Source of the DNA: an uncultured candidatus Porisulfidus sp.
GTDB lineage: Bacteria > Pseudomonadota > Gammaproteobacteria > Poriferisulfidales > Poriferisulfidaceae
Length of the DNA: 64,000 bases
Assembly (NCBI GenBank): GCA_965116025.1
Contig: OZ220480.1
Location: 864,001-928,000 of the forward strand
Direction: 5' to 3'
In this document: piece by piece, positions 20,627 to 53,374 of the stretch
Numbering within the stretch: the stretch's first letter is position 1
Layout: each line of letters begins with the position of its first letter
Made by a program: the position numbers and the translations under genes
The notes under the pieces: model-generated
Databases searched by the model: none
Told to the model about the DNA's origin: nothing
Seen by the model: the letters and a program-made list of their open reading frames with translations, nothing else

Positions 20627-20660
20627 ATATCCCCGCGAGGGCGGGATAAGATGATTGCTC

Positions 20661-21483: not shown

Positions 21484-21865
21484 GAACGGCAAGAAAGGTA
21501 GGATGGAGAAGAGGGGCGATCGCCGGGCTGGTCGGCTGGCCGGCAGGCGTGGCATTTGGAGCGGCTCTTCATAAGGCGATGAGAGGGAAAGGGCGGCGAA
21601 CGTCGGAGCGAGCGTGGGAGAGTATTTGGGTCATTGCCGCGTCCTGTGGGAGAAGGTGGAGGCGTCGCTGGAGGGCTTGCTCTAGTGCGCGGAGCGGGCG
21701 CCCGCTCTTTCCCGCGAACGCCCATCGCCACGATGGGCGGAGCGAAATCATGCGGAAATTCTCCGAGCGAGGGTCAATCCTCATTTTGGGCTATGCTATA
21801 CTCCCTCCGGGATTTAGGCGAATGTCAAGTCTCAAGCCATTGTTGCAACGTATTTCCTAGTCTAA

Positions 21866-22282: not shown

Positions 22283-22352
22283 CCTTGGCGTTTGGCGAGT
22301 CTCACCGAACTAAAAATCCAAACAAAATCTGGGACAAAACAGGGAGGATGAA

Positions 22353-23099: not shown

Positions 23100-23148
23100 G
23101 ACGCGAGCCTCACCCTATCCGATAATAACAAAGACACAGGAGTGAAAA

Positions 23149-24354
23149 ATGCCTAAATCCAACTGGAATGAAGTCGAGGGAACTGATCAGAGTGACCGGA
23201 CGCCGCCCTTGGAAGGCACTTCGGGGAAAGACCGGATGTTTGGGTATGAAGGCCGTGATTATCTGTGGGGCTTTGGAGGCGGTGACGTCATTTTCGGAGG
23301 CTTGGGCAACGATTACATTTATGGAGGTGATGGTGATGATCGGCTGTTCGGGGGCGAGGGCGATGACATAATGCAGGGCGATGACGGCAATGACAGGATG
23401 AAGGGAGAAGCTGGCGGCGACTACATGCAGGGCGGTGCGGGCAAGGACACGATGAGCGGAGGGGATGGCGTTGACAAGTTGTTCGGTGATACTGGCGATG
23501 ATGATATTGAAGGTGGGGCTGGCGTTGACACGATACACGGAGGATCGGGCGGTGACACGATCAAGGGAGGAGGTGGTAAAGACGTTCTGTTCGGTGATGC
23601 TGGTGATGATGATATTAAAGGCGAGGCTGGCGGTGACACGATACGCGGAGGATCGGGCGGTGACACGATCAAGGGAGGGGATGGCGACGACATCATATAC
23701 GGCGACATGCTCAAGGATGGCTCCAACCCGCGACAGACTCCCGAAGGCGAAGGCCAAGAAGGTAGCGAGGGGAACGACACGATTGACGGCGGCAAGGGCG
23801 ATGATGAGATATACGGTGGGGGTGGCAACGATACGCTGAAGGGAGGCGATGGCATTGACACTATGGAAGGCGGTAAGGGCGATGATGATATGGAAGGCGG
23901 CGCGGGCGTTGACACGATACGCGGAGGGGCTGGCAACGACACGATCAAGGGAGGCGATGGCTGGGATACGATGGGCGGCGACGAAGGCGACGACACACTG
24001 AATGGCGGCAAGGGCAATGACCAGATAGATGGCTATACAGGCGATGACACGCTGAACGGCGGCGAGGGCTTTGATACGCTTCGCGGCGGTACGGGAGCGG
24101 ATACTTTCCTCTTCGGAAGCAAGAGTGGACACGACCAGATCATGGATTGGGATGACGGGGATATGATCAAGTTTGCCGATGGACGCTCATACGGCTACGA
24201 TGACTTGAGGATCGACCGATCCCATCACGATAGAGACGATTTAGTGATAAAGGCGAAAGCGATAGACGATCAAGACTGGAGCATCACGTTGAAGGATACT
24301 GACTTCAGTGACCTGCAGGACGATTCCAGCGATTGGGACTACATGGGTGGGTGA
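23149..24354 (+). CDS. RTX repeat protein 4
   Basis: Long run of GGxGxDx(I/M/L) repeats; acidic C-terminus DWDYMGG. Confidence 0.9.
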
Positions 24355-32792: not shown

Positions 32793-32998
32793 ATCCGCCT
32801 GCGTCCATTCTACGATAGTCCGCGCTTCAATATTATGGTGCGCAATGGCTCCAAGGGGAAACGTCGTCTCGATTTTTGAGGGGATGGGAGGGGAGATTCC
32901 GGCGGACGCCGGTTTCGCCATCAAGGTTTCGGCGGCGATGTTGTACAATTCTCCGCCGCGTATTTAACTCATCGTCTTATCGTAATGAGGTGACTCAG

Positions 32999-35900
32999 AT
33001 GAAAGCTAGTCCTTCCGTTTCCAATGCCGCTCACGCCTCGTCGCGCGGGGCTTCGTCGTCCTCCCGCATAGGGGGGGGGGGGGGGGGGGGGGGCATAGCC
33101 TCCGTTTCCTGACCGTTCTGGCCGGTTTCACGGCCTTTCTCTCGATACCGCTAATTCCAAGCTCCGCCGTGGCGGGGACCACGGGGAATTGCGGCGACCC
33201 CAGCGCCAACGCGGTCACCTGTAGCGAAGCGAGCTACACCAACGACGACGGCTCCCCGATCAAGTACGAGAATCAGAACAAGGGTCTGACCTTGACCGTG
33301 AAGCCTACCGGGGTGGGCACGGTCACCATCACCGCCTCGAAGCTTCCTGCCAACGCGCGCGAGGAATTCCCGGGGATCCACCTGGACGGACACGGAACCC
33401 TGAAAGTCGTTCTGGATGGTTCCGTGAAAGTCGTGAACGGGGCGACCCGTACGACGGTGGAGGCCACGTTTGGGGATGGGAAGGAGACGTTCATCCACCC
33501 GGATCACAAGCGCGGCTCGCAAAACGACGGGGTGTACGTGGCGTACGACAAGGACTCCGACCGGGGGACGACGGAGGGCATGGTGGAGGTGATGGTGGGG
33601 AAGGACGCGATGATCGGGAGCGCGACGGCGCCGGCGGGACGGTTTGGGGTTCACGCGGCTTTTCTGGATGCGGACAACAACAGAAACTACCCGGCCGGGA
33701 AGATCAAGGTGACGAACGCGGGGGAGATATACGGCCATTACACGGGGATTTACGCGAAGCACGACGGGGCGGGCGCCATCGAGATCGAGACGTTGGAGGG
33801 GAGCGTGACGTCGATGGGTATCCGGGCGATCTCGAACGAGGCCAACAGGAACAAGCGAGGCGGAGACGTCACCATTCGCCACCATGGCCGGATCGTGTTC
33901 AAGGATCCGGTTCGGTATTTGGACTCCCTGAAAACGAACGCGCTGACGACGACCACGCCGTTGGAGGCGGACAAGGTGGACTATGCCGATAGGCACAGAG
34001 GCGGGATCTACGTGGAGCACAACGACAAGCGGAAGGGCACGGCCGCGAAACCCAGCAGCTCGATCTCGATCGAATCGAGCGGGGATATTGGGGCCCGCGA
34101 GTTTGGCGCCTACGTCATCACGTATGGGGCCTCCGGTTCCGTCGTGCCGATCACGGTCGACGTGACGGGGGGCGTCATCATGGCGGGCGGGCGGAATACG
34201 GAGAGTTTGGGAGACGGAATTTACGTTTATTCCTTTGGCCACAACGGCGGGCTCATCAAGGTGGATCTCGCGGGCGAGATCGCCTCGACGGGGACCGAGG
34301 GGGACGGGATCTACGTTTTACGGGCCACGTACGACGACAGCCAGCGTGGTGACATCAACCGGGACATCGAGGTGACGCTGAAATCCGGGGCGCGGATCGG
34401 CATGGAAGGAGACGAGCCGACCGTGGGTCGGCATGGCATGTATGTCATCCAGCAAATCCACGAGGGGACGATCCGGGTGGCCGTGGAGTCCGGGGCGCGG
34501 ATCGGGACCGCCGGGGCTCCAGTCGGCGGGCATGGCGTGTTCGCCGAGACCATAGCCTCGGACAACGAGATCCCCGTCATGATCACCAACGAGGGTCTGA
34601 TCCACGCGAAAGGCTCTGGGGTCTTCGCGTTGCATACCAGTTGGGGCGAGGTGGACGTGAAACATTTGGCGGGGAAGATCATTGCGGGCGACCTGTCCGA
34701 CGTCTTCTCCTCCTCCTCGCTCTCGGCGGATCACCAGACGAAACTGGCGGACCTGAAGGATCGGACCGCCGGCATTCTCGCCATCCATGGGGGCGCGGAG
34801 TCCCAGACGCTTCCCGGCAAGGAGTTTAATGAGGAGGACCCCGAGACCTACACCGCCGAGATCGGGGAGATCAAGATCATGTCGAAGGCGGACATCACGT
34901 CGAAGGGCGACGGGATTCTGGCCTACGTGAAAGACCTGGACAATACGGATGATGTAGATCCTCTGAAGATGATCATCCCGGTCAAGATAGACGTTTCGGG
35001 CGGGACGATCATGGCGGACGGGCATGGGGTCTACGCGGAGACGGCCACTCCCTATGACGATCCTGCGAAAGCCGGGAAGATAGAGGTCACGGTGGGGGAG
35101 ATGGCGACGATCCGAGCCAAAAAGGACGGGGTGCATGTCAAGGGCATGCGGACGTTCGCGTCCGACCACGCCCGGACGGGGCAATACGACCAGACGGTCA
35201 CGATCAACGGCAAGGTGATGGGCGGCGGTGGAGACCACGCCGGCGTTCGGATGGTGAAGGGCGGGACGCTGGTGATCGGGAGCGGCGGGCCGGAGGCGCG
35301 GCTCGGGGCGACCTCGGGCGTGGCGGTCCACGCGGACGGGGCTCTGACCATCACGATGAGCAAGACCGCCGACGGGCGCATCGGCTGGGTCGTGGGGAAG
35401 ATCCAGAATGGCGACAGCGCCGACACGACCTTCGCGGGCGTGGAAGTGGGGAAGACGTACCTGCTTCAGGATCGGGAGGAGACGAAGGGGATTTTCGACA
35501 CGACGATCGAGCGGAAGGTGACCTTGAGGGAACGCGCGGACGAGGACTATCACGAGTTCGAGCTGGTCTCTCAGGAGGAGATCGTTCGGGAGTACCATGA
35601 TCGGGCTCGGGTGTACGAGGCGCTGCCGTCGGTGCTGCTGGAGATGAGCGCGCCGGGCGGTCGTCAGGCGCGGTTGTCGGCGACGCGGGACGGCGGTGGC
35701 GCGTGGGCGCGGGCGCTGGCGAGCGACGGCGAGCGTGAGGCGGAGACGTCGACGACGGCGATGGACACGGCCGGGCATGATCTGTCCTGGGACTTCGAGC
35801 GCTGGGGCGTGGAGACGGGCTTCGCCGTTTCCACGGACCTGCCGGGCGTGACGCTGGGGGTGAGCGCGCACTACCGTGATGGCGAGGCGGACGTCGAGCG

Positions 35901-36498
35901 CGGCGGGAAGATCGAGGTCTCGGGCGTGGGCGTCGGGGTATCGGCGACTTGGTGGGGTGAGGATGGCTGGTACGCGGACGGGGAGTTCTTGTACACGCGT
36001 TTCGAGGACATTGACCTGAGCTCGGAGACTCGGGGGATGGTGGCGTCCGGTCTGGACGGAGAGGGTCACGCGATCGGCGTGGAGGTCGGCAGGCGGCTGG
36101 AGATGGACGGCTTCGCGCTGGTTCCGCGCGGAGGGTTGACGTGGACTTGGGTGGACGTCGACGGCTTCGCCGACGTGTCGGGCGTTTCTGGAAGCGGTCG
36201 GGTATCGTTCCGCTCGGAGGACAGCGTGCGGGCGCGGGTTGGAGCGCTGCTGGAGAATGGCCAGACGTACGCGTCTCTGGACGTGGAGCGTGAGTTCTCG
36301 GAGAGCCGGGAGGCGATGGCGTCGGGAGCGCGGTTGCGCTCGGAGGCGGAGTCGACTTGGGCGCGCTTAGGCGTTGGAGGCGTGATGACGCTGGACGCGC
36401 GGGGGGAGTCGACGCTCTCGGCGGACGCGCGCTACGCGGCGTCGGATGGCGACAATCATGACTATGGCGCGAGCGTCCTGCTGAAGGTTCGCTTCTGA
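32999..36498 (+). CDS. Autotransporter AT1, out of frame at G23 tract (putative phase-variable, OFF as assembled)
   Basis: ATG 32999 with GAGG SD; post-tract frame gives hydrophobic signal ending AVA; beta-helix-like passenger; C-terminal beta-barrel ending VRF. Confidence 0.88.
33071..33093 (+). repeat. Poly-G tract (23 G)
   Basis: Counted directly; context CATA-G23-CATAGCC. Confidence 0.95.
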
Positions 36499-36510
36499 CC
36501 GACTTGTGAT

Positions 36511-36541
36511 CGCGGCCCCGGCGTTTCAAGCCGGGGCCGCG
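36511..36541 (+). terminator. GC-rich hairpin after AT1 (related hairpins follow AT2 and AT3)
   Basis: Perfect 12-bp stem CGCGGCCCCGGC/GCCGGGGCCGCG; no T tail. Confidence 0.55.
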
Positions 36542-36676
36542 TCAACCGCGCGCTTCGAAAGCCTTGGCGAGGCGCCAAGCCGCGGGCTCGCATTGCTGCC
36601 CGCTACTTTCGTTCCGGTGTTGGGCCGCCGCTCTCCTCAAGTCAGCGGGAAGGCAGCAACTGGAAAGCTGCCGGAA

Positions 36677-36892
36677 GCCATCGTGGGTTTGTAGTCGTTG
36701 TTGAAGTATTCACTCGCGGTTATGCGAAGCGAAGGGAAAATCGCCTCGCGACGCGGAGCGTCCGGCCCCAGAGGAGAAATTTCCGGAATTTCTCCAGGCG
36801 CGTGCGCAATTTGTGAAACAGCATAGCCGGAAGTTAATTTTATGCATCGTGATTCAAATAGTTGCGAATACTTCAGCAGTGACCGCGATGGC
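36677..36892 (+). ncRNA. Candidate structured RNA or palindromic element of unknown family
   Basis: Nested helices 36677-85/36884-92, 36694-711/36866-83, 36717-25/36821-29 and 36773-81/36787-95; non-Watson-Crick positions are G-U on the + strand. Confidence 0.5.
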
Positions 36893-36946
36893 GCCATGTT
36901 TTGGCAGGTCGGGCCTGGTGGCTCCCGATGGCTGGCTGGCGCGGCA

Positions 36947-38161
36947 TCAGCCAGCGACTCGAAATGCCGTTTCATATATCTTGATATCGGGCGCGCTCAT
37001 GCCGAGGCGGCGCGCCTCTACACGCCAGTTCGCGAGCGCGGCTTCCTGCCGCGCGATCATGTCGTTCGCCTGTTTGGGGTTCAGCCCGAAGCGAGGCGCG
37101 GCGGCTCGGGCGAGGTCAAGGCTCGCGTCCGGTCCTTCTTCCGAGATCCACGTGCTCAGCTCGCGCGCCTTCTCGAACGCTGGAACCGGGTTCAAGTCGT
37201 AGGCTGGGGCGAGGCGCCACCACTCGCCCTCGGCATGGAGAAAGCCATGATTGCGCAGGTGGTCGTCGAGGTTCGAGACCAGAACGTTGAAGATCGCGCG
37301 CCCGAAAATCTCGCGCAGGTCCGCGGTCGGCGCGACGGAGCGCTTGCGTATCACCTCGGCGATATCGGTGTAGGTCGCCGTCTCTCCGTCCTCGAGTCCG
37401 AGCATCGTCATCGCCGAGACGAACGGGATCCGATCATCGCCGCGGCGATCGAAACGGGACACGACGGCGACCGGTCGTCCGGCGGCCACCTCGATGCGCG
37501 CCGGCGCCGCGTTCAGTCCGGCCTGGAGAGCCAGCCGCATGGCCAGCACCTCGCCGTGAGGGACGGATCGCTCGTCGTCGGGTTTCGGGAATTTCGCGAT
37601 GGCGAGCGAGCCGTCCTCGTCGCGCACGGCTGACTTCGGACGCGCCCCCCCGAGAGGCGATCCTTCATGCAGCAGAAGACGCAGGTCATCCGCGGACTCG
37701 GCGTTCTGGTGGATGGCGTCCGCCGCGCGACGTAGCGCGGGCAGTTGAATGATCGGGGGAACCCGGTGGCGCTGTCGCCCTGGCCCGAAGCCATCGTCGC
37801 CGGGACGCTCGCAGCGCAGCGCGCCAATCCGTGTCGAGTCGTCAAGGCCGAGCAGGTAGTCGATCTCGGAAAGAGAGCGGCGCTCGCCCGTCTTGCGAAA
37901 CGCGCGTTGGATCAATCGCCGCCCCCAGCGATCTGGAGCCGTGTCACGAATCGCGCCCGGCAGGGCGGATCGCCGGGCGAAGGGCCCGGCCCGCAAAGGC
38001 AGATTCTCGGGGTCGATGGCGAACGCTTCAGGGTCGCGAAGCCAGTCTTCGTCGTATTCGAAAACGCTCGTCGAGCCGCGCGCCTTGGATATATGGCGAC
38101 ACAAGCCGACCCGGCGCGTCGTTCCCCCGACTTCCATATGGATTTCCACGGTCTGGGTCAC
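36947..38161 (-). CDS. hipA: HipA-family serine/threonine kinase toxin
   Basis: DTAPDRWGR, GSPLGGARPK, IAKFP, NLDDHLRNHGF, LAPAYDLNP. Confidence 0.92.
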   Translation of the reverse strand: MTQTVEIHMEVGGTTRRVGLCRHISKARGSTSVFEYDEDWLRDPEAFAIDPENLPLRAGPFARRSALPGAIRDTAPDRWGRRLIQRAFRKTGERRSLSEIDYLLGLDDSTRIGALRCERPGDDGFGPGRQRHRVPPIIQLPALRRAADAIHQNAESADDLRLLLHEGSPLGGARPKSAVRDEDGSLAIAKFPKPDDERSVPHGEVLAMRLALQAGLNAAPARIEVAAGRPVAVVSRFDRRGDDRIPFVSAMTMLGLEDGETATYTDIAEVIRKRSVAPTADLREIFGRAIFNVLVSNLDDHLRNHGFLHAEGEWWRLAPAYDLNPVPAFEKARELSTWISEEGPDASLDLARAAAPRFGLNPKQANDMIARQEAALANWRVEARRLGMSAPDIKIYETAFRVAG

Positions 38162-38490
38162 GGCGACCTCTCACGGCGCCGACGGTGGATCGCGCGCGGC
38201 AAAGCCTCCTCCTCAAGGTCGAGGCCCAGCGCGTCGTCCCGGCGGTCCGCGACGTCTCCCAGCCTGTCGACGAGTCCCAGGATGGCGAGCGCGGTCGCAT
38301 AGGTTCCGATGGAGACGGCCGGGTCGCCACGCTCCATCCTATAGAGCGTGTTGCGACTGATGAAGGCCCGTTCCGCCATGGAAATCGTGGAGAGTCGTCG
38401 CTTCTTGCGCGCGACCGCGATATCCGCGCCAAGCTTAGCGAGGGCCGCGCGCGCCGCGCGCGGGAGGGCATCTCTGGATTTTGATCGCAT
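38158..38490 (-). CDS. HipB-like XRE HTH antitoxin
   Basis: LGADIAVARKKR, MAERAFISRNTLYRMERGDPAVS; 4-nt overlap with hipA. Confidence 0.88.
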   Translation of the reverse strand: MRSKSRDALPRAARAALAKLGADIAVARKKRRLSTISMAERAFISRNTLYRMERGDPAVSIGTYATALAILGLVDRLGDVADRRDDALGLDLEEEALPRAIHRRRRERSP

Positions 38491-38499
38491 TTTGAATTA

Positions 38500-38533
38500 T
38501 GTATCATACAAAAAATAGAATAATGCTCATTAT
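38500..38533 (-). promoter_or_regulatory. AT-rich promoter with two palindromes (candidate antitoxin operators)
   Basis: TGTAT-C-ATACA (38500-38510) and ATAATG-CT-CATTAT (38520-38533) upstream of the HTH gene. Confidence 0.5.
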
Positions 38534-38708
38534 ATAGCGCTTATCGTTGGATCCGAAGCCGTCTCCCGCGCCAAAGCGAGCCATGAGGTCTCGCTTTTTC
38601 CGGTCGGTTTCGGCATCGCGTCAAGCGGCTCGCGTCCGTCAGATTCCCGCTACGCCAAAATTGGCCAGAGCCTTGTCGCGATGTCTTCATTTGCTAAAAT
38701 CCAGCGCC

Positions 38709-39089
38709 ATGAAGCTGACGTTTCTCCGCGCCCGCCTGCATCGAGCCGAGGTGACTCGCGTCGAGCCGGACTACGACGGTTCGTGCGCGATCGATGGCGA
38801 GCTTCTTGAGACCGCCGGAATCGGCGAGTATGAGCGGATCGATCTCTACAACATCAGCAATGGGGAGCGTCTCACCACCTACGCCATCCAAGCCGACCGC
38901 GGCAGCCGCGTCATTTCGGTGAACGGCGCGGCGGCGCGCAAGGCGGCGCCGGGGGACCGGATCATCATCGCCGCCTACGCGCAACTGGAGCCGGAGGAGG
39001 TCGCTGGCTTCAAGCCGGTCCTGGTGTACTTGGGCGAGGGCAACCGCGTCGAGCGCGTCGCCCACAAGATTCCGGTTCAGGCCGCTTGA
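38709..39089 (+). CDS. panD: Aspartate 1-decarboxylase
   Basis: LHRAEVT, YDGSCAID (G-S self-cleavage site), NGERLTTYAI, NGAAAR. Confidence 0.95.
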   Translation: MKLTFLRARLHRAEVTRVEPDYDGSCAIDGELLETAGIGEYERIDLYNISNGERLTTYAIQADRGSRVISVNGAAARKAAPGDRIIIAAYAQLEPEEVAGFKPVLVYLGEGNRVERVAHKIPVQAA

Positions 39090-39090
39090 T

Positions 39091-41886: not shown

Positions 41887-42046
41887 GAAAGATGTGGATG
41901 ACGGTGCGGGCGGCCATTATACAAGGCGCGCCCGGCAGTCGGGTTCCGTCGGCCCCTTTCCTGGCTCAACCGCACGCGAGCGCCGGGGCCGGGGTATTGT
42001 ACAATTCGCGGCTATCCGAGACTGATCCTCGAAGGAAGAATGAAAA

Positions 42047-45000
42047 ATGACTAAGAAGAATCAAAACCTGCTCGTTTCCGAGATTCGCGCCGCGCTCCAC
42101 GGCGCTTCGTCGTCTTCCCGCATAGGGGGGGGGGGGGGGGGGGGGGCATAGCCTCCGTTTCCTGACCGCTCTGGCCGGGCTGACGGCCGCTCTCTCGGTC
42201 GCGCTGACGCCGCATTCCGCTGAGGCGGACGAGTGCGGCGCGGTCAGCGCCGCCAAGACGGTCACCTGCGGCGCCGCGACCTACGGCGGGACTAATAACG
42301 CCGATGCCGATCCCGTCGACTACACGGGTCAGACGGGTGGCTTGACGCTGACCGTGAAGCCTTCCGGGGAGATGACGACCATCAAGTCGTTCTTGGGCAC
42401 TTCCTCAACTGATCGTCGCTCCGGGATCTATGTGACCGGCGCTAGCGCCTTGGTGGTGAAGCTGGAGGGCAAGGTGAGAATCGTGAACGAGGCCGGCGGC
42501 TGGACTTCACCCATCACGGGCACGTACACCACTCCTGGTGGCCAGCGGGTCAGCGCGACCTTCGTCGATCCTCAGTTCAAGGCGGGTCGCTGGAATCAAG
42601 GGGTTCACGTCTTGAACTCGCAAGGCCGCGACCGCACCGGCAACAGAGAGGACAAGATCGAGATCGTGGTCGGGGCCGAGACGAAAATCGGAACCGAGGA
42701 CGTTCCCGTGGGCCGGACCGGCGTGGTGGCGCATTACAGCAGCGCTTACGCCGTGGGCGACATCTCGGTCGTGAACCGAGGCGAGATCTACGGGTATTAT
42801 CGAGGAATCCATGTGGTTCACCAAGGGTTGTCCGGAGACGTCTCCGTCGAGACGGCGAAGGGCAGCGTGACCAGCAAGGGGATTCTGGTCTATCACTCCA
42901 ACCACTACGCCCTAGACAAAGGGGGCGACGTCACCATCACGAACCATGGGACGATCAAAAGCCTGAGGCAACGGCCTCTCTACGCGAACATGCTCACGGA
43001 CGGGGCGAACGGCAAGGTGGGCACGCTTTTGGATAGCGCCACCGCCTTCTCCGTGCACGGCATATACGTCGACCACAAGGACACGACCGCGCCGGGTTCC
43101 GGCGAGGATTCCAGCAGCGTGATCAAGATCACCTCGAGTGGTGACATCGCCGCTCGCCAGCATGGCATTACCATCGACACGTACGGAGACGCGGATTCGA
43201 TCGTTCCGGTGATGATCGACGTGACGGGGGGCGTCATCCAGGCCGGCGATGGGGATAACGGATACCAGGGACACGGGATCGAGGTTAGACACCGAAGACA
43301 CCTCGGTGGTTTGATCAAGGTGGATCTCGCGGGCGAGATCGCTCAGGCGGACGAGAGGCACGGGATTCACGTCTACCGGTACTCCGCCACCGACGCTCGC
43401 GACGGAGTCAATCGGGATGTCGAGGTGACATTGAAGTCCGGGGCGCGGATCGGCATGGACGGAGACGAGCCGACCGTGAGTTGGGATGGCGTGAACGTTG
43501 AGCAGCAAGCGGATGGAGGAACGGTCAGGGTGACCGTCTCCGAGGGAGCGATGATCGGGACTCGAGAGACTCCAGTTGGCGAGAACGGCGTGTTCGCTGA
43601 GAACGACAATCACGGTTCCGAGACCTACATCACGCTCGTCAACGAGGGCTTCATCCACGCGCGAAGCTCCGGGCTTGCCGCCTGGCATGTTGGGCAGGGC
43701 GACGTGGTGGTGGAGCATCTGAAGGGCGAGATCGTCGCGGGCGACGCGCCCAAGACGTTCAGCGCGAATTTCAGCGCGAGAACGGAGCTGGCGGCCCTGA
43801 AGCCTCGGACGGCTGGCCTCTTCGCTTTCCATGGAGGCGCCGAGCCCCAGGCGCTTCCCGGCAAGACGCTCAATGGCGGCGACCCCTCCACCTACACCAC
43901 CCGGATCGGGAAGATCAAGATCACGTCGAAAGCGGACATCACGTCGAAGGGCGACGGGATTCTCGCCTATGTGAGAGACTTGGACGATACGGCGTCGAGG
44001 ATTGCCAAGATGGTCATCCCGGTCATGATCGACGTGTCGGGCGGGACGACCACGGCGGACGGGCACGGGGTTTACGCGGAGACGGCCACCACCTATACGG
44101 ATACGGAAGCCCCCATGGCCGGGGAGACCATCGTCACGGTGGGGGAGATGGCGACGATCCGAGCCAAGAAGGACGGCGTTCACGTCAAGGGCATGCGGAC
44201 CTTCGCGTCCGACCACGCCCGGAAGGGGCAATACGACCAGACGGTCACCATCAATGGCAAGGTCATGGGCGGCGGTGGAGACCACGCCGGCGTTCGGATG
44301 GTGAACGGCGGGACGCTGGTGATCGGGCCGAAGGCGGAGATCGGCGCGACGTCGGGGATCGCGGTGAGCGCGGACAAGGCGCTGCATGTCACCCTGAAGG
44401 AGAACGCGCATGGGCAGATCGCGTTCATCACGGGGAAGTTCCTGAACAGTGGAGAGGACGCGCCGAACGTCTTCCAGCGCGAATCGATGGCGGGCATGAC
44501 GAAGGCGATAGCCGTGGGGGACGCGGTGAAGGCGACGTCCGGTAAGACGGGGACGCATGGGGTGTATGACGCGGTGTTCGAGCGGATGGTCACGCTGAAG
44601 TCGATCACGGGCGGGCACCAGTTCGAGGCGGGCGTGGAGAGGGAGATCAGCCGGACGTACCATGATCGGGCCCGGGTGTACGAGGCGCTGCCGTCGGTGC
44701 TGCTGGAGATGAGCGGCTCGGACGGTCGTCAGGCGCGCTTGTCGGCGACGCGTGGCGGCGGGGGCGCTTGGGCGCGGGCGCTGGCGAGCGACGGCGAGCG
44801 GGAGGCGGATATGTCCACGACGGCGATGGACACGGCCGGGCATGATTTGTCTTGGGACTTCGAGCGCTGGGGCGTGGAGACGGGCTTCGTCGTTCCCACG
44901 GACGCGCCGGGGCTTATGCTGGGGGTGAGCGCGCATTACCGTGATGGCGAGGCGGACGTCGAGCGCGGCGGGAAGATCGAGGTCTCGGGCGTGGGCGTCG

Positions 45001-45563
45001 GGGCCTCGGCGACTTGGCGGGGGGAGGATGGCTGGTACGCGGACGGGGAGTTCTCGTACACGCGGTTCGAGGACGTCGACTTGAGTTCGGAGACTCGGGG
45101 GATGGTGGCGTCCGGTCTGGACGGAGAGGGTCACGCGATCGGCGTGGAGGTCGGCAGGCGGATGGAGATGGACGGCTTCGCGCTGATCCCGCGCGGAGGA
45201 TTGACGTGGACTTGGGTGGACGTCGACGGCTTCGCCGACGTGTCGGGGATTACTGGAAGCGGTCGGGTGTCGTTTCGCTCGGAAGACAGCGTGCGGGCGC
45301 GGGTCGGAGCGCTGCTGGAGAATGGCCAGACGTACGCCTCGTTGGACGTGGAACGCGATCTCTCGGAGAGCCGGGAGGCGATGGCGTCGGGAGCACGGTT
45401 GCGCTCGGAGGCGGAGTCGACTTGGGCGCGATTGGGCGTCGGGGGCGTGATGACGCTGGACGCGCAGGGGGAGTCGACGCTCTCGGCGGACGCGCACTAC
45501 GCGGCGTCGGATGGCGACAATCACGATTACGGCGCGAGCGTCCTGCTGAAGGTTCGCTTCTGA
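42047..45563 (+). CDS. Autotransporter AT2, out of frame at G22 tract (putative phase-variable, OFF as assembled)
   Basis: ATG 42047; post-tract frame HSLRFLTALAGLTAALSVALTPHSAEA; passenger plus beta-barrel ending VRF. Confidence 0.88.
42125..42146 (+). repeat. Poly-G tract (22 G)
   Basis: Counted directly; context CATA-G22-CATAGCC. Confidence 0.95.
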
Positions 45564-46117
45564 TTAGTCCATGACGCGGCCTTGGCGTTTCCGGTCGGGG
45601 CCGCGTCGACTGCGGGCGGTCCTCTGGTCGAGTCTCCCGCGAGCCTTTCCAAAAAACTGGTTGGCTCTCGCTAGGGAAACCGATGCTCGCCTCGCGCTGG
45701 CCGGCGACGAGATCTTTCGGAAGGTCACCGAGATGAAGTGGCAAGCGGCGCCATCGGGACTTCTCTATGACGCGCTATGCCCGGTTACGCCGTGACGGTC
45801 TCGTATTATTCTGATCTTCCGACGCGTCTCCTGATGCCGAGCGCTGCCTGAGCGGATCTCGTGGAAAAACGCCGAGGCTAGTCCTCGCCAGAATCGTTGA
45901 AAATCGCCCCAGCGCGGCGGCGTTTCGCTCGCGCCAGGGCTCTCTTCCAGAATGGCCGCGGAAGTCTCCGGCGATATGGAGTTGGCGAATCGTCCGTCGC
46001 GGGAGCGCGTCGTCGGACGTGAGCCTGCGCGCCACCTTCGCCCAAGTAAAATGGGCTGGATCCACCCATTCCCGGCATCGTCGCGTCGCCTCGGTCCGTA
46101 TGGGAACGGATTTCGCC

Positions 46118-47662
46118 ATGCCTGACCTCTACCCCGAATCCCTGTTTCTCCACGCGGAGCGTCTGCGGAGCGTCTCGATGCGGGACCTGTTCGGACGGGG
46201 TCGGGACCGCTCTTTTCTGCGCCGCGAGATTGAGGGCATCCACGTGGACGCCTCGCGCCAGAGCCTCGACTTGGAGGCTTGGTCGGATTTGCTGAAGATG
46301 GCGGGGAGGCTGGAGCCCGCTCGGTCCAGGCTGTTCTCTGGCGCGACGGTGAACGTGACCGAGAATCGCCCGGCGCTGCATCCGGCCTTGCGGGACCCGC
46401 GTCCAAAGGGACTGGTCGTGGGCGGCGTGGACATCCTCGCCGAGGCGCGGCAGGAGCGTCGGCGGCAGCGCGCGTTCGCGCGCGAGTGCGCGGGGCGCTG
46501 GGAGACGGTCGTCAACCTAGGCATCGGCGGCTCGGACCTTGGTCCGCGCATGCTGTGCGAGGCGTTTCCCCAGGCGCGGGGAGCGCCGGACATGCGTTTC
46601 GTGTCGACGATGGACCCGGAGGAGATGGCCGCCGCGCTGCGTGGCCTCGACGCGCGGCGGACGTTTTTCATCGTCGCCTCAAAGAGTTTCGCGACGGAGG
46701 AGACTTCCCGCAATTTCGAGGCGGCCCGGAGGTGGTTGGAAGGCCAAGGGGTGGAGTCCGGGGCGGTGATGGAGCGCTTCGCGGCGACCACAGCCACAGT
46801 TGATCGGGCGCGGGAGAGCGGGATCGACGAGCGGAGAATCTTTCCGTTTTGGGACGGGGTCGGTGGGCGCTACTCGGTCTGGTCGAGCGTCGGCCTGCCG
46901 GTGGCGCTGCATGCCGGATGGGAAGCGTTCGAGGAGCTGCTCGCGGGCGCTCGAGCGGTGGACGAGCATTTTCGGGAGGCGGACGCGGAATCCAACGTCC
47001 CCGTGATGCTGGCTCTGCTCATGCTGTGGAACCATACGTTCCTGGGCGCGCCAACCCGCGCGGTGCTTCCGTACAACTACCGCTTGCGGAGCTTGCCGAG
47101 GTTTCTGCAGCAGCTGCAGATGGAGAGTCTCGGCAAGCGCGCCGACGAGCGGGGCGAACTGCGGGATGTCGCGGCGCCGGTCGTGTGGGGCGGCTCCGCC
47201 AACGATGGCGCGCACGCGTTCTTCCAGTCGCTACACCAAGGGTCGCAGACGGTGCCGGTGGACGTGATCATCGCGCGCCCGAACCTAGAGGACGACCGAG
47301 AGCGGGCGCTGCTGGCGCAGTGCCTGTCACAACTGGATTTGCTGGCGTCGGGGCGGTCCGCCGAGGAGGCGGAGCCAGCCGCCGGAGTGGCGGCGGGTCA
47401 CTACGCGCATCCCGGTGACCGGCCGAGCGCGCTGTTCTTGATGGACGACCTGAGTCCGCGGCGGGTGGGGGCGCTGCTGGCCTTGTTCGAGCACGCCACC
47501 TTCGCTATCGCCACGCTCTGGGGGATCAACGCCTTCGACCAGTTCGGGGTCGAGCATGGCAAGCGCCTATCGCGCTCCTTGGAGGAAGCGTTGCGGGACC
47601 CGGAATCTCCGGCGCCCGGACGCACTCTGGATGTCCTTTTGGACCGGTTGCGAGGTCGTTGA
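46118..47662 (+). CDS. pgi: Glucose-6-phosphate isomerase
   Basis: NVTENRPALH, LGIGGSDLGP, VGGRYSVWS, QQLQMESLGK, NAFDQFGVEHGK; exact start uncertain. Confidence 0.95.
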   Translation: MPDLYPESLFLHAERLRSVSMRDLFGRGRDRSFLRREIEGIHVDASRQSLDLEAWSDLLKMAGRLEPARSRLFSGATVNVTENRPALHPALRDPRPKGLVVGGVDILAEARQERRRQRAFARECAGRWETVVNLGIGGSDLGPRMLCEAFPQARGAPDMRFVSTMDPEEMAAALRGLDARRTFFIVASKSFATEETSRNFEAARRWLEGQGVESGAVMERFAATTATVDRARESGIDERRIFPFWDGVGGRYSVWSSVGLPVALHAGWEAFEELLAGARAVDEHFREADAESNVPVMLALLMLWNHTFLGAPTRAVLPYNYRLRSLPRFLQQLQMESLGKRADERGELRDVAAPVVWGGSANDGAHAFFQSLHQGSQTVPVDVIIARPNLEDDRERALLAQCLSQLDLLASGRSAEEAEPAAGVAAGHYAHPGDRPSALFLMDDLSPRRVGALLALFEHATFAIATLWGINAFDQFGVEHGKRLSRSLEEALRDPESPAPGRTLDVLLDRLRGR

Positions 47663-48438
47663 TGCGCTACTTGCTGTTCAGCGATGTCGATGGCACGATG
47701 TTGGACGGAGACACGTATCGATGGGATGAGGCGTTGCCCGGGATCAAGAGAGCGCGCGCGCGCGGAACGCCGATCATTCTCAACACGAGCAAGACCGAGC
47801 AGGAAACCCGGGCGCTGGCGGAGAGTCTCGGGATCGACGCGCCGTTCGCGATCGAGAATGGCGGCGCGGTGTACGTGCCGCCGGGGACGTTCGACGACGG
47901 CGAGGAGGAGGGACTGATTCCCTTCGGCGCACCCTTCCGGGAGATTCGGGACGCGCTGGACGAGCTGTCGGATTCGTTTCGGTTTCAGGGGATTTCGGAA
48001 ATGAGCGGGAAGGAGGTCGAGGAGGCCTGCGGCTTGCCGCCGGGCGCGGTGGCGGCGGCGCGCGAGCGCCGCTTCAGCGAGCCGCTGATCTGGCGGGACG
48101 AGCTGGAGCGCCTGGACGAGTTCGCGGCGCGCTTGCGCCCGCGCGGGCTGATCCTCAAGCGCGGGGACCGCTTCATGCATGTCATGGGGGAGACGGACAA
48201 GCGCGTCGCGCTGGAGCGTCTGATGCCACGCTATCGCCGACTGCATCCAGGGGTCGCGAGCGTGGCGCTCGGCAATGGGCCGAATGATTTAGGCATGATG
48301 GCGGCGGCGGATATCGCGGTCGTGATCCGCAACCCGAACGGGCGCGACATACAATATCCTGGCGCGCTCGTCCCGGAAGGGACCGGTCCGGCGGCTTGGT
48401 CGCGCGCGGTTCGAACGTTGCTGGAGGGGCGACCATGA
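47662..48438 (+). CDS. Mannosyl/glucosyl-3-phosphoglycerate phosphatase (HAD IIB)
   Basis: FSDVDGTMLD, NTSKT, FAIENG, RRFSEP, ALGNGPNDLGM. Confidence 0.85.
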   Translation: MRYLLFSDVDGTMLDGDTYRWDEALPGIKRARARGTPIILNTSKTEQETRALAESLGIDAPFAIENGGAVYVPPGTFDDGEEEGLIPFGAPFREIRDALDELSDSFRFQGISEMSGKEVEEACGLPPGAVAAARERRFSEPLIWRDELERLDEFAARLRPRGLILKRGDRFMHVMGETDKRVALERLMPRYRRLHPGVASVALGNGPNDLGMMAAADIAVVIRNPNGRDIQYPGALVPEGTGPAAWSRAVRTLLEGRP

Positions 48439-49649
48439 GCGATTTCTTCCAGAATGGGCAGATCGTCACGCTGCATGATCTAGCGGGGCGCCCGACCGAG
48501 GAGTTCGAGGCGGAGTTGCTGGAGTTCTCCCGCGACCGGCCGCTGGGGCTGGTGTTGCCCTCCCTGTATTCGGAGCTGGAGGGGCCCGCGCTGGGCCGGA
48601 TCGTCGAGGAGCTGGCCCGGGTCGAATACCTGAACGAGATCGTGATCGGTCTGGATGCCGCGGACGCGGAGCAGTTCAAGAAGGCGAGAGACTTCTTCTC
48701 CCGCTTGCCGCAGCCGCATCACGTGCTCTGGAACGACGGTCCTCGATTGCGGGCGCTGGCGGACGAGCTGGAGGCTCGGAGCCTGGCGCCGACCCGGCAT
48801 GGCAAGGGTCGCAACGTCTGGTTCTGCTTCGGGTACGCGCTGGCCTGCGCCCGGGCGCAGGCCTTGGCGCTGCATGACTGCGACATTACCACGTACGACC
48901 GTCGCCTGCTGGCGCGGCTGATCTATCCGGTCGCGAACCCGAGTTTCAGCTTCGCGTTCTGCAAGGGGTACTACTCGCGCATCTCCGGGCGGGAGCTGAA
49001 GGGCCGGGTGGCGCGCTTGCTGGTGGCGCCGCTGCTGCGCGCCTTGCGCAAGGTGTTCGGGCCGCGCGACTTCGTCGAGTACATCGATAGCTTCCGATAT
49101 CCTCTGGCCGGAGAGTGCTCGCTGCGCACCTACGTTCTGAAGGACTTGTATCTGCCGGACGATTGGGGACTGGAGATCGGTTTGCTCGCTGAGGTCCGGC
49201 GCATGCATTCCAGCCGGCGCGTTTGCCAGATCGACATCGCGGACTTGTATGATCACAAGCACCAGCAGATGGGGACGGCCGCCGCGCGGAAAGGGCTGTC
49301 GAAGATGAGCGCGGACATCTGCAACGCCATCTTCCGAAAGATGGCGATCGAGGGCGAGGTGTTTTCCGAAGGAGTGTTCCGCAGCCTCAAGGCGGCGTAT
49401 CTGCGGGAGGCGCTGGATCTGATCGAGCGCTACCAGAGCGACGCGGTGACCAATGGGCTGAATTTGGACCGGCACGCGGAGGAGCAGGCGGCGGAATTGT
49501 TCGCCAGCAACCTGCTGGTCGCGGGACAGGATTTCCTGTCGCGGCCGATGGAGAGCCCGTACGTGCCGAGCTGGCGGCGGGTTCGCTCGGCGATCCCGGA
49601 CTTCTTGCGGCGCCTGAAGGTGGCCGTGGAGGAAGATAATCAGGAGTGA
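48435..49649 (+). CDS. gpgS: Glucosyl-3-phosphoglycerate synthase-like glycosyltransferase
   Basis: MSDFFQNG, LPSLYSEL, GKGRNVW, LHDCDI, YPLAGE, DWGLEIG, YDHKHQ. Confidence 0.8.
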   Translation: MSDFFQNGQIVTLHDLAGRPTEEFEAELLEFSRDRPLGLVLPSLYSELEGPALGRIVEELARVEYLNEIVIGLDAADAEQFKKARDFFSRLPQPHHVLWNDGPRLRALADELEARSLAPTRHGKGRNVWFCFGYALACARAQALALHDCDITTYDRRLLARLIYPVANPSFSFAFCKGYYSRISGRELKGRVARLLVAPLLRALRKVFGPRDFVEYIDSFRYPLAGECSLRTYVLKDLYLPDDWGLEIGLLAEVRRMHSSRRVCQIDIADLYDHKHQQMGTAAARKGLSKMSADICNAIFRKMAIEGEVFSEGVFRSLKAAYLREALDLIERYQSDAVTNGLNLDRHAEEQAAELFASNLLVAGQDFLSRPMESPYVPSWRRVRSAIPDFLRRLKVAVEEDNQE

Positions 49650-49874
49650 TCTGACCAGTGGCGGGAACGCCGCCCGTTACCGCCTGGCGCGAGAAGGAGT
49701 TTCTCCGCGCCTTGATGCCGTAACTCAGGTCGCCGTCGTCCCATATCGTTCTTGATTTCGACGACTTATCCGGGTATGTCGAGACTTCTCCGCAAGATTT
49801 GGGAACGCGCCGGTGTGAGCTTATAATGCACGCTCATCTGAACGTTGGACCTATCCCATATTAGGAGAACAACA

Positions 49875-52800
49875 ATGACCAAGAGCCCGTCCGTTTCCAA
49901 GATTCGCGCCGCGCTTCGCGGGGCTTCGTCGTCCTCCCACATAGGGGGGGGGGGGGGGGGGGGGGGGGGGATAGCCTCCGTTTCCTGACCGCTCTGGCCG
50001 GATTGACGGCCATTCTCGCGGTTCCAAACTCAGCCCTCGCGGTAGACGAGTGCGGCGCTACCAGCCCGGTCACCTGTAGCGACGCGAGTTACACGTCCAC
50101 CAGCGACTCCCCGATCAAGTATGAGAATGAGACCGGGGGTCTGACCTTGACCGTGAAGCCTTCCGGGGCGGGCACGGTCACCATCACTGCCACGAAGCTT
50201 CCCGCGACCACGAGCGAGGCGTTCCCGGGGATCCACCTGGACGGGGAAGGGACTCTGAAAGTCCTCTTGGATGGCGCCGTGAAAGTCTTGAACGGGGCGA
50301 CCCGGACGACGGTGGAGGCCACGTTTGGAGACGGGAAGGAGACGTTCATCCACCCGGATCACAAGCTGGGCTCGCGGAACGACGGGGTGTACGTGGCGTA
50401 CGACAAGGATGACGACGCGGGGACGACGGAGGGCATGGTGGAGGTGATGGTGGGGAAGGACGCCGTGATCGGGAGCGAGACGGCGCCGGCGGGTCGGCAC
50501 GGGGTTCACGCCGCCTTTCTGGACGCGGACGACGACACCAACTATCCGGCCGGGAAGATTAAGGTGACGAGCGCGGGAGAGATTCACGGTTATTACACGG
50601 GGATTTACGCGAAGCACGACGGGGCCGGGGACATCGAGATTGAGACGGCGGAGGGGAGCGTGACGTCGATGGGGATTCGGGCGATCTCGTTCAAGAACCT
50701 GGATAATCGGGTCGGGAGCGTCACCATTCGTCATCATGGCCGGATCGTGGTCAAGAGTCCGGTTCGGTACGCGGGCGCGCTGACGACGGCGAACGTGGCC
50801 ACGCCGTTGGACACGGACCTGGCGACGACCAGGAGCGACGTGAACAAAGGCGGGATCTTCGTCACGCATCGGGATAGGCGGAAAGGCGCGTCCGCGCCCG
50901 CGGAGCCCAGCAGCTCGATCCTGATCGAGTCGAGCGGCGACATCGACGTGGTCGCCAATCCGACCCACAGTGAAGACGTGAAAGGGATCTTCGTGGAGAC
51001 CTATGGGGTTGGCGGTTATTCCGTGGTTCCGGTGACGATCAACGTGACGGGAGGGACGATCACGGCGAGCGACCAAGGGAAAACCAAGAGTGGGATTGGG
51101 ATTTACATCCATTCGTTGCATCACTACGGCGGTCTCGTCAAGGTGGACCTCGCGGGCGAGATCGCCCGGACCGGAAGCAAGGGGCATGGGATACTCATTT
51201 ACCGGGGCACGTCGTTCGACAACGACAAAATCGATCCCGACGTCAATCGGAACGTCGAGGTGACGCTGAGGTCCGGGGCGCGGATCGGCATGGATGGGGA
51301 CGAGCCGACCGTGGGTCGGCATGGCGTGTACGTTCAAAACCAGATCTACGGGGGAAAGACCCTGGTGGAGGTCGAGTCTGGAGCGCGGATCGGGACCATG
51401 GGGACGCCGGTTGGCGGGAATGGCGTGACCGCCGAGGCCATAGCCAACGACAACGATATCAACGTCATGATCACCAACGAGGGTCTCATCCACGCGAAAG
51501 GCTCGGGGGTGGTCGCGTTTCATATGGGTTGGGGCGACGTGGACGTGAAGCATCTGGCGGGGAAGATCATCGCGGGCGACCTGCCCACCAACTTCGGCAC
51601 GGTCAGTCTGGATCACAAGACGAAACTGGCGGAGTTGGACTCCCGGAGCGCAGGCATCTTCGCCGTTCATGGGGGCTCGAAGCTCCAGACGCTTCCCGGC
51701 GAGACGTTCGAAGGCAACGACCCCTCCACCTACACCGCCGATATCGGAAAGATCGAGATCACGTCGAAAGCGGATATCGCGTCTAAGGGCGACGGCGTTC
51801 TCGCCTATGTCAAAGACATTGATGTTCCAGCCGATATCGTGTTCATCCCGATCATGATCGACGTTGCGGGCGGGACGATCACGGCGGACGGGCACGGGGT
51901 CTACGCGGAGACCGCCAGCCCCTACGAGGACGAGGACGCGCCGAAAGCCGGGAGGATCGAGGTCACGGTGGGGGAGATGGCGACGATCCGAGCCAAGAAG
52001 GATGGCGTTCACGTCAAGGGGATGCGGACCTTCGCGTCCGACCACGCCCGGAAGGGGCAATATGACCAGACGGTGACCATCAACGGCAAGGTGATGGGCG
52101 GCGGTGGAGACCACGCCGGCGTTCGGATGGTGAAGGGCGGGACGCTGGTGATCGGGAGCGGCGGGCCGGAGGCGCGGCTCGGGGCGGCCTCGGGCGTGGC
52201 GGTCCACGCGGACGGGGCTCTGACCATCACGATGAGCAAGACCGCCGACGGGCGCATCGGCTGGGTCGTGGGGAAGATCCAGAATGGCGACAGCGCCGAC
52301 ACGACCTTCGCGGGCGTGGAAGTGGGGAAGACGTACCTGCTTCAGGATCGGGAGGAGACGAAGGGGATTTTCGACACGACGATCGAGCGGAAGGTGACCT
52401 TGAGGGAATACGCGGACGAGGACTATCACGAGTTCGAGCTGGTCTCTCAGGAGGAGATCGTTCGGGAGTACCACGATCGGGCTCGGGTGTACGAGGCGCT
52501 GCCGTCGGTGCTGCTGGAGATGAGCGCGCCGGGCGGTCGTCAGGCGCGGTTGTCGGCGACGCGAGACGGAGGTGGCGCGTGGGCGCGAGTGCTAGCGAGC
52601 GATGGCGAGCGTGAGGCGGAGACGTCGACGACGGCGATGGACACGGCCGGGCATGATCTGTCTTGGGACTTCGAGCGCTGGGGCGTGGAGACGGGCATCG
52701 CCGTTCCCACGGACCTGCCGGGTCTGACGCTGGGGGTGAGCGCGCATTACCGTGATGGCGAGGCGGACGTCAAGCGTGGCGGGAAGATTGATGTCTCGGG

Positions 52801-53374
52801 GGTGGGCGTCGGGGCATCGGCGACCTGGCGGGGGGAGGACGGCTGGTACGCGGACGGGGAGCTCTCGTACACGCGTTTCGAGGATGTCGATTTGAGTTCG
52901 GAGGCGCGCGGGATGGTGGCGTCCGGTCTGGACGGCGAGGGTCACGCGATCGGCGTGGAGGTCGGCAGGCGCATGGAGATGGACGGCTTCGCGCTGGTTC
53001 CGCGCGGGGGACTGACGTGGACCTGGGTGGACATCGACGGCTTCGCCGACGTGTCGGGCGTTACAGGTAGCGGTCGGGTGTCGTTCCGCTCGGAGGACAG
53101 CGCGCGGGCGCGGGTTGGAATGTTGCTGGAGAATGGCCAGACGTACGCGTCATTGGACGTGGAGCGTGAGTTCTCGGAGAGCCGGGAGGTGATGGCGTCG
53201 GGAGCGCGCCTGCGCTCGGAGGCGGAGTCGACATGGGCGCGATTGGGCGTCGGGGGCGTGATGACGCTGGACGCGCGCGGGGAGTCCACGCTCTCGGGAG
53301 AGGCGCACTACGCGGCGTCGGACGGCGACAATCATGACTATGGCGCGAGCGTCCTGCTGAAGGTTCGCTTCTGA
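49875..53374 (+). CDS. Autotransporter AT3, out of frame at G27 tract (putative phase-variable, OFF as assembled)
   Basis: ATG 49875 with AGGAG SD; post-tract frame SLRFLTALAGLTAILAVPNSALA; passenger plus beta-barrel ending VRF. Confidence 0.88.
49944..49970 (+). repeat. Poly-G tract (27 G)
   Basis: Counted directly; context CATA-G27-ATAGCC. Confidence 0.95.

Follow-up and report, generated by a model that had tools for sequence, protein, structure and literature searches.

Three autotransporter genes carry long poly-G tracts between start codon and signal peptide

The 64,000-nucleotide stretch of DNA analysed here (the window; positions 864,001 to 928,000 of contig OZ220480.1, or G000:C1:864001-928000) belongs to the genome of an uncultured candidatus Porisulfidus sp., which is assembled as a single contig of 2,018,984 bp with 62.7% GC and 99.4% completeness. 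It holds three paralogous genes with autotransporter barrels, called AT1, AT2 and AT3 here, which are scattered between housekeeping genes in the order panC, AT1, hipA, panD, ppc, AT2, pgi, HAD hydrolase, AT3, ABC transporter. Exactly three homopolymers of at least 8 nucleotides are present in the window, and these are the G23, G22 and G27 tracts near the 5′ ends of AT1, AT2 and AT3, respectively (Table 1). All three tracts are set in common flanks, cgtcgtcYtcccRcata-(G)n-(c)atagcctccgtttcctgacc. From base composition, only ~0.07 runs of G or C of at least 15 nucleotides are expected in the whole genome, and the window alone has three at homologous codons. Therefore, chance does not account for these tracts.

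Each tract lies 69 to 78 nucleotides downstream of an ATG (positions 32999, 42047 and 49875). The frames that begin at these ATGs read M..(A/G)ASSSS(R/H)I followed by glycines, and are closed by a stop codon one to six codons 3′ of the tract. In AT1, the resulting peptide is M..SSSSRI-G7-GIASVS before a TGA (Table 1); the AT2 frame ends at a TAG (42149-42151) and the AT3 frame at a TGA (49986-49988). The hydrophobic core HSLRFLT(V/A)LAG.. and the AxA site (HSLRFLTVLAGFTAFLSIPLIPSSAVA in AT1) are encoded in a frame that is shifted from that of the ATG, and this passenger frame stays open for 1,130-odd codons until stops at 36498 (AT1), 45563 (AT2) and 53374 (AT3). In the third frame, a TAG stands directly 5′ of the tract. 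Start codon and passenger would share a frame with 21 or 24 G in AT1 and AT2, and with 25 or 28 G in AT3 because its tract is not followed by a C. In none of the three genes does the passenger frame contain an ATG, GTG or TTG 5′ of the hydrophobic core; the first in-frame start of AT1 is a GTG at 33169, downstream of the core.

The tract and frame architecture of AT1 to AT3 is thus confirmed as it was first read. An initial annotation, made from the sequence alone, had reported the three tract lengths and the shared leader, the halting of the ATG frames a few codons past the tract, the signal core and AxA site in another frame continuous with passenger and barrel, and the tract lengths that would restore the frame, and direct reading agrees on each point. 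It had also pointed out that the open reading frame (ORF) track starts these genes downstream of the tract and so hides a switch, and public gene calls do begin 3′ of the tract (P0001, 1109 aa; P0004, 1123 aa).

The encoded proteins resemble classical autotransporters

The autotransporter beta domain PF03797 matches the C-terminal ~230 residues of AT1 to AT3 (E 2e-23 to 4e-27), and TIGR01414 matches one paralogue (E 1.3e-22). PF03797 is the only Pfam match above the cut-off, with no match to the Chlam_PMP repeats (GGA(I/L/V), FxxN). The Pfam search found no catalytic or protease domain at E values up to 1, and no match to PF13018 (ESPR) at E up to 1 in a natural in-frame paralogue, a search in which HMMER filtering discards most matches whose E exceeds 0.1. 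An AlphaFold2 model of AT1, built with 34 aligned homologues (pLDDT 80, pTM 0.71), consists of a long beta-helix, a helix at residues 811-827 and then the barrel. The modelled barrel aligns with those of AaaA, Hbp, AIDA-I and NalP (Z 24-26; NalP Z 23.9) and of BrkA (TM 0.7). The modelled passenger aligns with Vag8 (Z 23.2, rmsd 3.8, 384 residues aligned) and pertactin (Z 22.6, 412 aligned), and generic beta-helix lyases and tailspikes are also among its structural matches. On the basis of the Pfam matches and this model, AT1 to AT3 are predicted to be classical type Va autotransporters with a pertactin- or Vag8-like beta-helix passenger, which probably serves as an adhesin or a surface-coat protein.

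Twenty-four paralogues share the tract cassette

When the barrel is used as a query, 26 copies are found in the genome. The dispersed family that had been proposed from the window therefore counts 24 tract-bearing paralogues; the other two copies are a full-length paralogue that lacks a tract and a tract-free remnant in the window (Table 1). The tract-free paralogue (508081-510720, minus strand; 880 aa) has an ordinary signal peptide and offers a natural ‘always on’ comparator. The remnant lies among four ORFs with RTX calcium-binding repeats on the plus strand (window 18376-24351; HemolysinCabind, E 1e-28 to 1e-82).

The layout of ATG, tract and signal core is alike in 24 of the 25 full-length paralogues. 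Stop codons are conserved across the family as well, with TAG or TGA 3′ of the tract in both wrong frames and TAG 5′ of it in the third. All 24 ORFs are open (889-1166 aa), and by our addition the bodies total 26,845 codons, or ~4.0% of the genome. Protein identity between paralogues ranges from 59 to 90% (median 67.5%), the N-terminal half of the passenger being the most variable region and the barrel being 91-96% conserved. Exactly identical blocks of up to 576 nucleotides occur between copies that have otherwise diverged, which points to gene conversion.

The tract lengths are 16, 17 (three copies), 19, 20, 21 (two), 22 (four), 23 (eight), 24, 25, 26 and 27. Counting from the canonical ATG, four copies are in frame (1062605, 1471950, 1498267 and 1586276), 11 need one additional nucleotide and nine need two. 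This split does not differ significantly from a uniform one (chi-square 3.25, 2 df, p ~0.2, our calculation), and the frames look free to drift. The earlier statement that all genes are OFF as assembled stands for the three window genes and fails for the genome, where these four copies read through as preproteins of 1067-1186 aa, M..SSSSR(I/V)-G5-8-HSLRFL... These four are the only copies in which a start codon and the signal core share one continuous frame. Of the 20 out-of-frame copies, 16 lack any ATG, GTG or TTG that could open the passenger frame 5′ of the core. Two other kinds of start were considered and set aside: in some copies an ATG located 47 nucleotides 5′ opens a frame that the conserved TAG closes directly before the tract, and an ATG at -148 in copy 1011129 is in frame but lacks a Shine-Dalgarno sequence, and was not counted as an ON state.

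By eye, a TATAAT or TACAAT hexamer is located ~40-50 nucleotides 5′ of the ATG in most of the 24 paralogues. Cumulative GC skew places the origin of replication at ~700 kb and the terminus at ~1,700 kb, and 22 of the 24 family genes are co-oriented with replication; by our own count, the 21 long tracts elsewhere in the genome are unbiased (10 versus 11). No RNA run is listed among the sequencing runs that match this DNA. The G run can pair with the pyrimidine-rich flanks on both sides, and an RNA structure around the tract is unsupported when judged against shuffled sequences (z 0.2-0.3). A scan for terminator-like hairpins gave 12 sites, which is not significant relative to shuffles (10.0 +/- 3.9). 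A GGCCG..CGGCC hairpin (33120-33135, plus strand) lies within the LAG(F/L)TA codons of AT1, just 3′ of the wrong-frame TGA, with an equivalent site in AT2 and AT3. Its T-rich tail in AT1 is not conserved in AT2 or AT3. This hairpin could terminate transcripts that are not being translated, but neither the scan nor the tail lends this idea support.

The tracts remain pure, and one pair differs in length between identical flanks

Two features of the family bear on whether the tract is retained merely as the code for a glycine spacer. Overall, GGG makes up 34.6% of the 3,697 Gly codons in the family genes, and internal Gly runs, including a conserved GGGG motif, use mixed codons such as GGC GGC GGT GGA. 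All 24 leaders hold 16 to 27 uninterrupted G nucleotides despite a dS of ~0.3-0.6 between genes. A spacer selected only as protein would therefore not be expected to stay a homopolymer. Furthermore, copies 631630 and 1003940 have flanks that are exactly identical over 39 nucleotides 5′ and 196 nucleotides 3′ of the tract, yet one carries G23 and the other G17. It follows that the tract alters faster than point substitution accumulates, where the length differences compared are those between paralogues and assemblies, rather than between alleles of one locus. A pair of non-autotransporter loci with G18 and G19 (385736 and 1747365) was also considered as a clean test of mutability, but the two are only 89% identical and thus uninformative.

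The genes behind the tracts do not appear to be decaying, since all 24 ORFs are open and the median dN/dS is 0.18 for the barrel and 0.56 for the passenger. The three window genes (0.48-0.51 overall) are no different from the rest of the family.

Related tracts in other assemblies

Twelve of the 36 homologues identified derive from other European Nucleotide Archive (ENA) assemblies, on contigs of 1.05, 1.07 and 3.01 Mb, and their tracts are inferred from protein N-termini only. Four of the 12 have an in-frame polyglycine leader (..SFSFLK-G8-HSPRLLSVALAG, ..AFFSLM-G6-YSPRFLSVALAG, ..HFPYLK-G6-HSLRFLTVALAG and ..APAGH-G7-NKRRFLTVALAG), in which six to eight glycines are followed by (H/Y/N)..R(F/L)L..ALAGLT. 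The remaining eight are called from a Met 3′ of the signal peptide, as expected for out-of-frame copies.

Among relatives, 13 of 15 congeners have runs of at least 14 G, as do 9 of 12 members of a sister family (f3); no such run was found in the 12 genomes examined from a family with ~1-Mb genomes (f2). Runs at the contig ends of fragmented assemblies may be sequencing artefacts; among single-contig relatives, 12 of 16 have such runs. The leader motif itself was found in none of 40 relatives. Its matches in two genome contigs and three metagenome contigs belong to unrelated records (Saprospiraceae, Parapedobacter and three JGI contigs) and were taken as chance. The close family is absent at E<=1e-40 from 52 other genomes of the order, and only distant autotransporters (32-34% identity over the barrel) occur in 6 of the 15 congeners. 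One congener (G011, a 120-contig assembly) encodes a distantly related autotransporter with the 5′ end ATG CCA TTG-C14-SNKPLFALFGVLA.., and in the assembly this start is not in frame with the rest of the gene.

Contigs of one sequencing run (X3), which represent a population ~95% identical to the window, bring parts of AT1, AT2 and AT3 together in different combinations across window positions 33849-51241. This arrangement suggests that a related strain may hold a differently shuffled repertoire of paralogues. Three congeners (L030 in G003, L032 in G002 and L043 in G006) have a tract of G14-16 before ..LLFS...INAY.V.R.DVENLI.., and one of these genes has ..KWAGGKRQLL.. further 5′. By eye, this gene resembles one for a Dam-type DNA methyltransferase that bears a switch at its 5′ end.

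Long tracts elsewhere in the genome

The spectrum of G and C runs in this genome has two parts. Runs end at 8 nucleotides, none has 9 to 14, and then 45 runs of 15 to 39 nucleotides are observed. Composition alone would give ~76 runs of at least 9 nucleotides and 0.07 of at least 15. By our own arithmetic, 15 nucleotides is also the shortest single run that can fold a three-tier G-quadruplex alone. The only other repeats found in the genome are (GC)7-9; arrays of tetra- to nonamers were looked for and are absent.

The 21 tracts that do not belong to autotransporter genes are located within or next to genes of contingency type (Table 1). Contingency repeats are established in the same gene classes in Neisseria, Haemophilus, Campylobacter and Helicobacter (see PMC5953494, PMC2823697). 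The restriction-modification genes with tracts, some of which are split into two ORFs at the tract, are candidates for phase-variable methylomes. Two of the tracts fill promoter spacers, where they may act as spacing switches like that of Bordetella fim.

Table 1. Positions of the tracts and associated features (AT1 to AT3 and the remnant in window coordinates; all other rows in genome coordinates).
Feature	Position	Strand	Remarks
AT1 -10-like hexamer TACAAT	32944..32949	+	50 nt 5′ of ATG; unreported by formal promoter scan
AT1 leader, ATG and 23 codons (MKASPSVSNAAHASSRGASSSSRI)	32999..33070	+	GAGGTG 6 nt 5′ of ATG
AT1 G23 tract	33071..33093	+	Gly7 or Gly8 when in frame (21 or 24 G)
TGA closing the AT1 ATG frame	33110..33112	+	six codons 3′ of tract
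AT1 body	33094..36498	+	signal core/AxA 33094-33174, beta-helix passenger, helix linker, 12-strand barrel (Pfam ~35704-36402)
AT2 -10-like hexamer TACAAT	42000..42005	+	by eye; unreported by promoter scan
AT2 leader (MTKKNQNLLVSEIRAALHGASSSSRI)	42047..42124	+	frame reading
AT2 G22 tract	42125..42146	+	in frame at 21 or 24 G
AT2 body (signal core, passenger, barrel)	42147..45563	+	frame reading, Pfam
AT3 promoter-like TTGGGA-17-TATAAT	49799..49827	+	10/12 matches, promoter scan
AT3 leader (MTKSPSVSKIRAALRGASSSSHI)	49875..49943	+	frame reading
AT3 G27 tract, no C 3′	49944..49970	+	in frame at 25 or 28 G
AT3 body (signal core, passenger, barrel)	49970..53374	+	frame reading, Pfam
Family remnant lacking tract and passenger: leader MRNHLTASNAARAALRG joined to last ~123 barrel residues	21866..22279	+	PF03797 E 7.5e-6
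Mrr/ResIII restriction enzyme, Eco57I-like methylase, N6_N4 and N6 DNA methylases, BglII endonuclease	11481, 154914, 605518, 968262, 1038751 (L082, L085, L088, L094, L095)		tract in or beside gene
Two paralogous GT2 glycosyltransferases	90005-90034 (G30), 97045-97083 (G39) (L083)		two longest tracts; overlap ORF ends, 7 kb apart
Kdo/WaaP lipopolysaccharide (LPS) kinase			tract in or beside gene
T1SS ABC/HlyD pair			tract in or beside genes
Promoter spacer ttgacaa-G20-tataat	772596-772615 (L090:3001-3020)	-	
Promoter spacer ttgaca-G15-tatact	789208-789222 (L091:3001-3015)	-	upstream of RTX-repeat gene

A proposed translational switch and its alternatives

We favor the interpretation that each gene encodes a type Va autotransporter and that a hypermutable poly-G tract, placed 3′ of the start codon and 5′ of the signal core, controls whether it is translated, and we assign this a probability of roughly 0.7. 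Each gene would be transcribed from its own promoter, and a ribosome would start at the ATG preceded by a Shine-Dalgarno sequence, read 20 to 26 codons and then translate the tract as polyglycine. If the tract length fits (a multiple of three with the common leader), translation would continue through HSLRFLTVLAG..AxA, the passenger and the barrel, and the protein would be exported. In either of the other frames, the ribosome would encounter a conserved stop codon one to six codons 3′ of the tract. Replication slippage would add or remove G nucleotides, such that the 24 loci would flip independently and reversibly and a population would display mixed combinations of surface proteins. The rate of slippage, its reversibility and its effects on expression and export are what we infer. 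Phase variation had been the proposal of the initial annotation for the three window genes, and it gains support from the 24 paralogues whose G16-27 tracts fall in all three frames, from the purity of these tracts, from the in-frame Gly leaders in other assemblies and from the 21 tracts in contingency gene classes.

Several observations weigh against this interpretation. The formal promoter scan flagged only AT3, and its four sites compare with 2.1 +/- 1.5 in shuffles. The signal peptide was recognized by eye only, as an Arg, a 17-residue hydrophobic core and then AxA. MutS (871 aa) and MutL (583 aa) are present with open frames, and thus there is no mismatch-repair defect to boost slippage and hypermutability would rest on tract length alone. 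Two copies, 545783 (minus strand) and 756392 (plus strand), have a variant leader, G23-ca(A/T)TGtcccgcttcctgacc, which places an ATG or TTG directly 3′ of the tract in the passenger frame, and a start at this position could bypass the switch. Slippage by RNA polymerase or by the ribosome on such long tracts could blur the distinction between ON and OFF. Moreover, the public DNA runs (three, from one study) consist of contigs interrupted at the tracts, and exact lengths rest on assembly; individual ON and OFF calls therefore depend on how the assembler called homopolymers of 16-27 nucleotides. When these contigs are aligned to the window, breaks fall at or near tracts (one X1 record, for example, ends at 42129), but such breaks are uninformative because the flanks are repeated 24 times in the genome. 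Finally, the commonest tract length is 23 (8 of 24), one below the in-frame length of 24, as under-calling of homopolymers would give.

This last pattern leads to the alternative that true tract lengths are fixed in frame (18, 21, 24 or 27), that the genes are constitutive with a polyglycine spacer in the signal n-region, and that the frameshifts are consensus errors. The 11 of 24 genes that need one more nucleotide agree with such an artefact, as do published reports noting that deposited G-tract lengths can be wrong (PMC9187656, PMC3323650), and the lengths used here are known from contigs, not reads. However, errors of 1-2 nucleotides would be required at 20 of 24 loci and in both directions, a spacer needed only as protein would not have remained pure GGG as described above, and conserved stops in both wrong frames would be purposeless. 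The other assemblies are also mixed, with 8 of 12 homologues called as if out of frame and 4 of 12 in frame, and the C14 tract of the congener G011 is out of frame too. Therefore, we regard a general assembly artefact as unlikely. We judge it comparably improbable that leaky decoding is the operating principle, with polymerase or ribosome slippage at 22-27 G yielding some full-length protein from every copy and the tract setting the level, although this may coexist with switching at the DNA level. In its favor, an all-G run would let tRNA-Gly re-pair perfectly in any frame, and transcriptional slippage on long homopolymers is reportedly established for A and T runs (PMC1088944); for G and C runs we know of no demonstration of efficient slippage, which counts against it. 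That all 20 out-of-frame copies are intact and under purifying selection fits leaky decoding, but is equally expected if the DNA itself switches. In Bifidobacterium breve, by contrast with the leaky model, production of pili followed the DNA tract length (PMC9187656).

Two other alternatives we consider very improbable. If the out-of-frame copies were young pseudogenes of an over-expanded family, the clear remnant in the window would be a natural companion, and work on the Campylobacter autotransporters capC and capD reports decay of genes with G tracts (PMC7168839). Here, however, the tract is the only lesion in each copy, and the open frames (24 of 24) and the low dN/dS of the barrel and of the window genes argue against decay. 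Translation that begins 3′ of the tract and still yields exported protein is a scenario of similarly slight probability. Copies 545783 and 756392 supply a possible start there, followed by SRFLT.., and the G run itself could serve in place of a Shine-Dalgarno sequence; against this, the window genes and 16 of 20 out-of-frame copies offer no start codon before the core, and the first one in AT1 falls past it. More speculatively, the long tracts may represent a distinct system, given that there are 45 of at least 15 nucleotides and none of 9-14 in a genome with intact mismatch repair. G-quadruplexes or R-loops on the G-rich coding strand, rather than plain slippage, would then drive or tune tract instability or expression, and the 24 autotransporters (22 co-oriented) would form a combinatorial coat that varies the surface of a sponge symbiont against host cells and phages. 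We treat this elaboration as a long shot.

Comparison with known phase-variable systems

Tract-gated translation as proposed for AT1 to AT3 is a mechanism already known, and neither the tract position nor its length is unprecedented. What is unusual is that 24 genes share one cassette, that tracts are uniformly long without intermediates, and that mismatch repair is intact. In Bordetella, the reference gene of bapC (BP2738 / BB2033) is frameshifted by its G11 tract, G10 to G13 coexist in single colonies, and the orthologous tract of B. bronchiseptica RB50 has 35 nucleotides (PMC1891110). Both systems involve a type Va autotransporter of a high-GC bacterium with a homopolymer in the 5′ coding region, but bapC is a single gene. 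The likeness to Bordetella proteins noted for our models is at the level of barrel and fold only (the BrkA barrel and the Vag8 and pertactin folds). NalP and MspA of Neisseria meningitidis are phase-variable autotransporters as well, and nalP is switched by an intragenic poly-C tract of C9-13 (PMC5953494). NalP resembles the present family in this intragenic tract and in a barrel that matches the AT1 model, but it is a single-copy gene with a shorter tract and a protease passenger, whereas no protease domain was found here in the Pfam search.

In the Chlamydia Pmp family, several genes have long poly-G tracts, and when one strain was sequenced twice the reading frames at these tracts did not agree (PMC3323650). 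These proteins likewise form a multigene, autotransporter-type surface family with long poly-G, although only some pmp genes carry tracts and the Chlam_PMP repeats have no match in our family. Chlamydia also differs in its obligate intracellular, pathogenic lifestyle and in the low GC content of its genome. A combinatorial surface is produced by the opa genes of Neisseria, where, as in pilC, a repeat in the region coding for the signal peptide sets the frame and ~11 opa copies switch independently. The opa repeat is a pentamer and the proteins are small 8-strand barrels, and pilC does not encode an autotransporter, so that both differ from the family described here. Two sortase-pilus genes of B. 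breve, bbr_0113 and bbr_1889, have a G tract between the Sec signal and the body, at which mixtures of G11 and G12 were measured (PMC9187656). This beneficial, high-GC, host-associated bacterium thus also separates the signal from a surface-protein body by a G tract, but it is Gram-positive, the proteins are pilins, and the tracts are of 10-12 nucleotides at two loci only. In the Campylobacter capC and capD families, poly-G is conserved either within the promoter or within the gene itself, and the authors ascribe inactivation mainly to decay (PMC7168839). They resemble our genes as autotransporter families with poly-G, and differ by tracts of ~G9 and a low-GC genome.

Neighboring genes and significance

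The window contains two full-length phosphoenolpyruvate carboxylase genes within 40 kb (40-2661, plus strand; 39091-41886, minus strand), the first of which is followed by a gene with a methylene-H4MPT dehydrogenase N-domain (2718-3575). The description of the organism as C1-metabolizing, made in the initial annotation, rests on this one domain in the window. A HipA-family kinase gene (36947-38161, minus strand) and AT1 are located between panC and panD, and both look like insertions into a pantothenate gene neighborhood.

Most documented cases of phase variation through repeat slippage come from pathogens and commensals of vertebrates. Our literature search for phase-variable autotransporters or poly-G contingency loci in symbionts of sponges and other marine invertebrates found no paper on the subject. 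Because gene callers start all of these genes 3′ of the tract, the signal peptides are lost from existing annotation, and the proposed switch with them. A genome of 2.0 Mb gives ~4% of its DNA to 24 autotransporters with the architecture of a switch, and has tracts of the same kind on restriction-modification and LPS genes. If switching by these tracts is true, then symbionts of marine invertebrates would cope with host recognition and with phages in part by varying their cell surface and their methylome stochastically.

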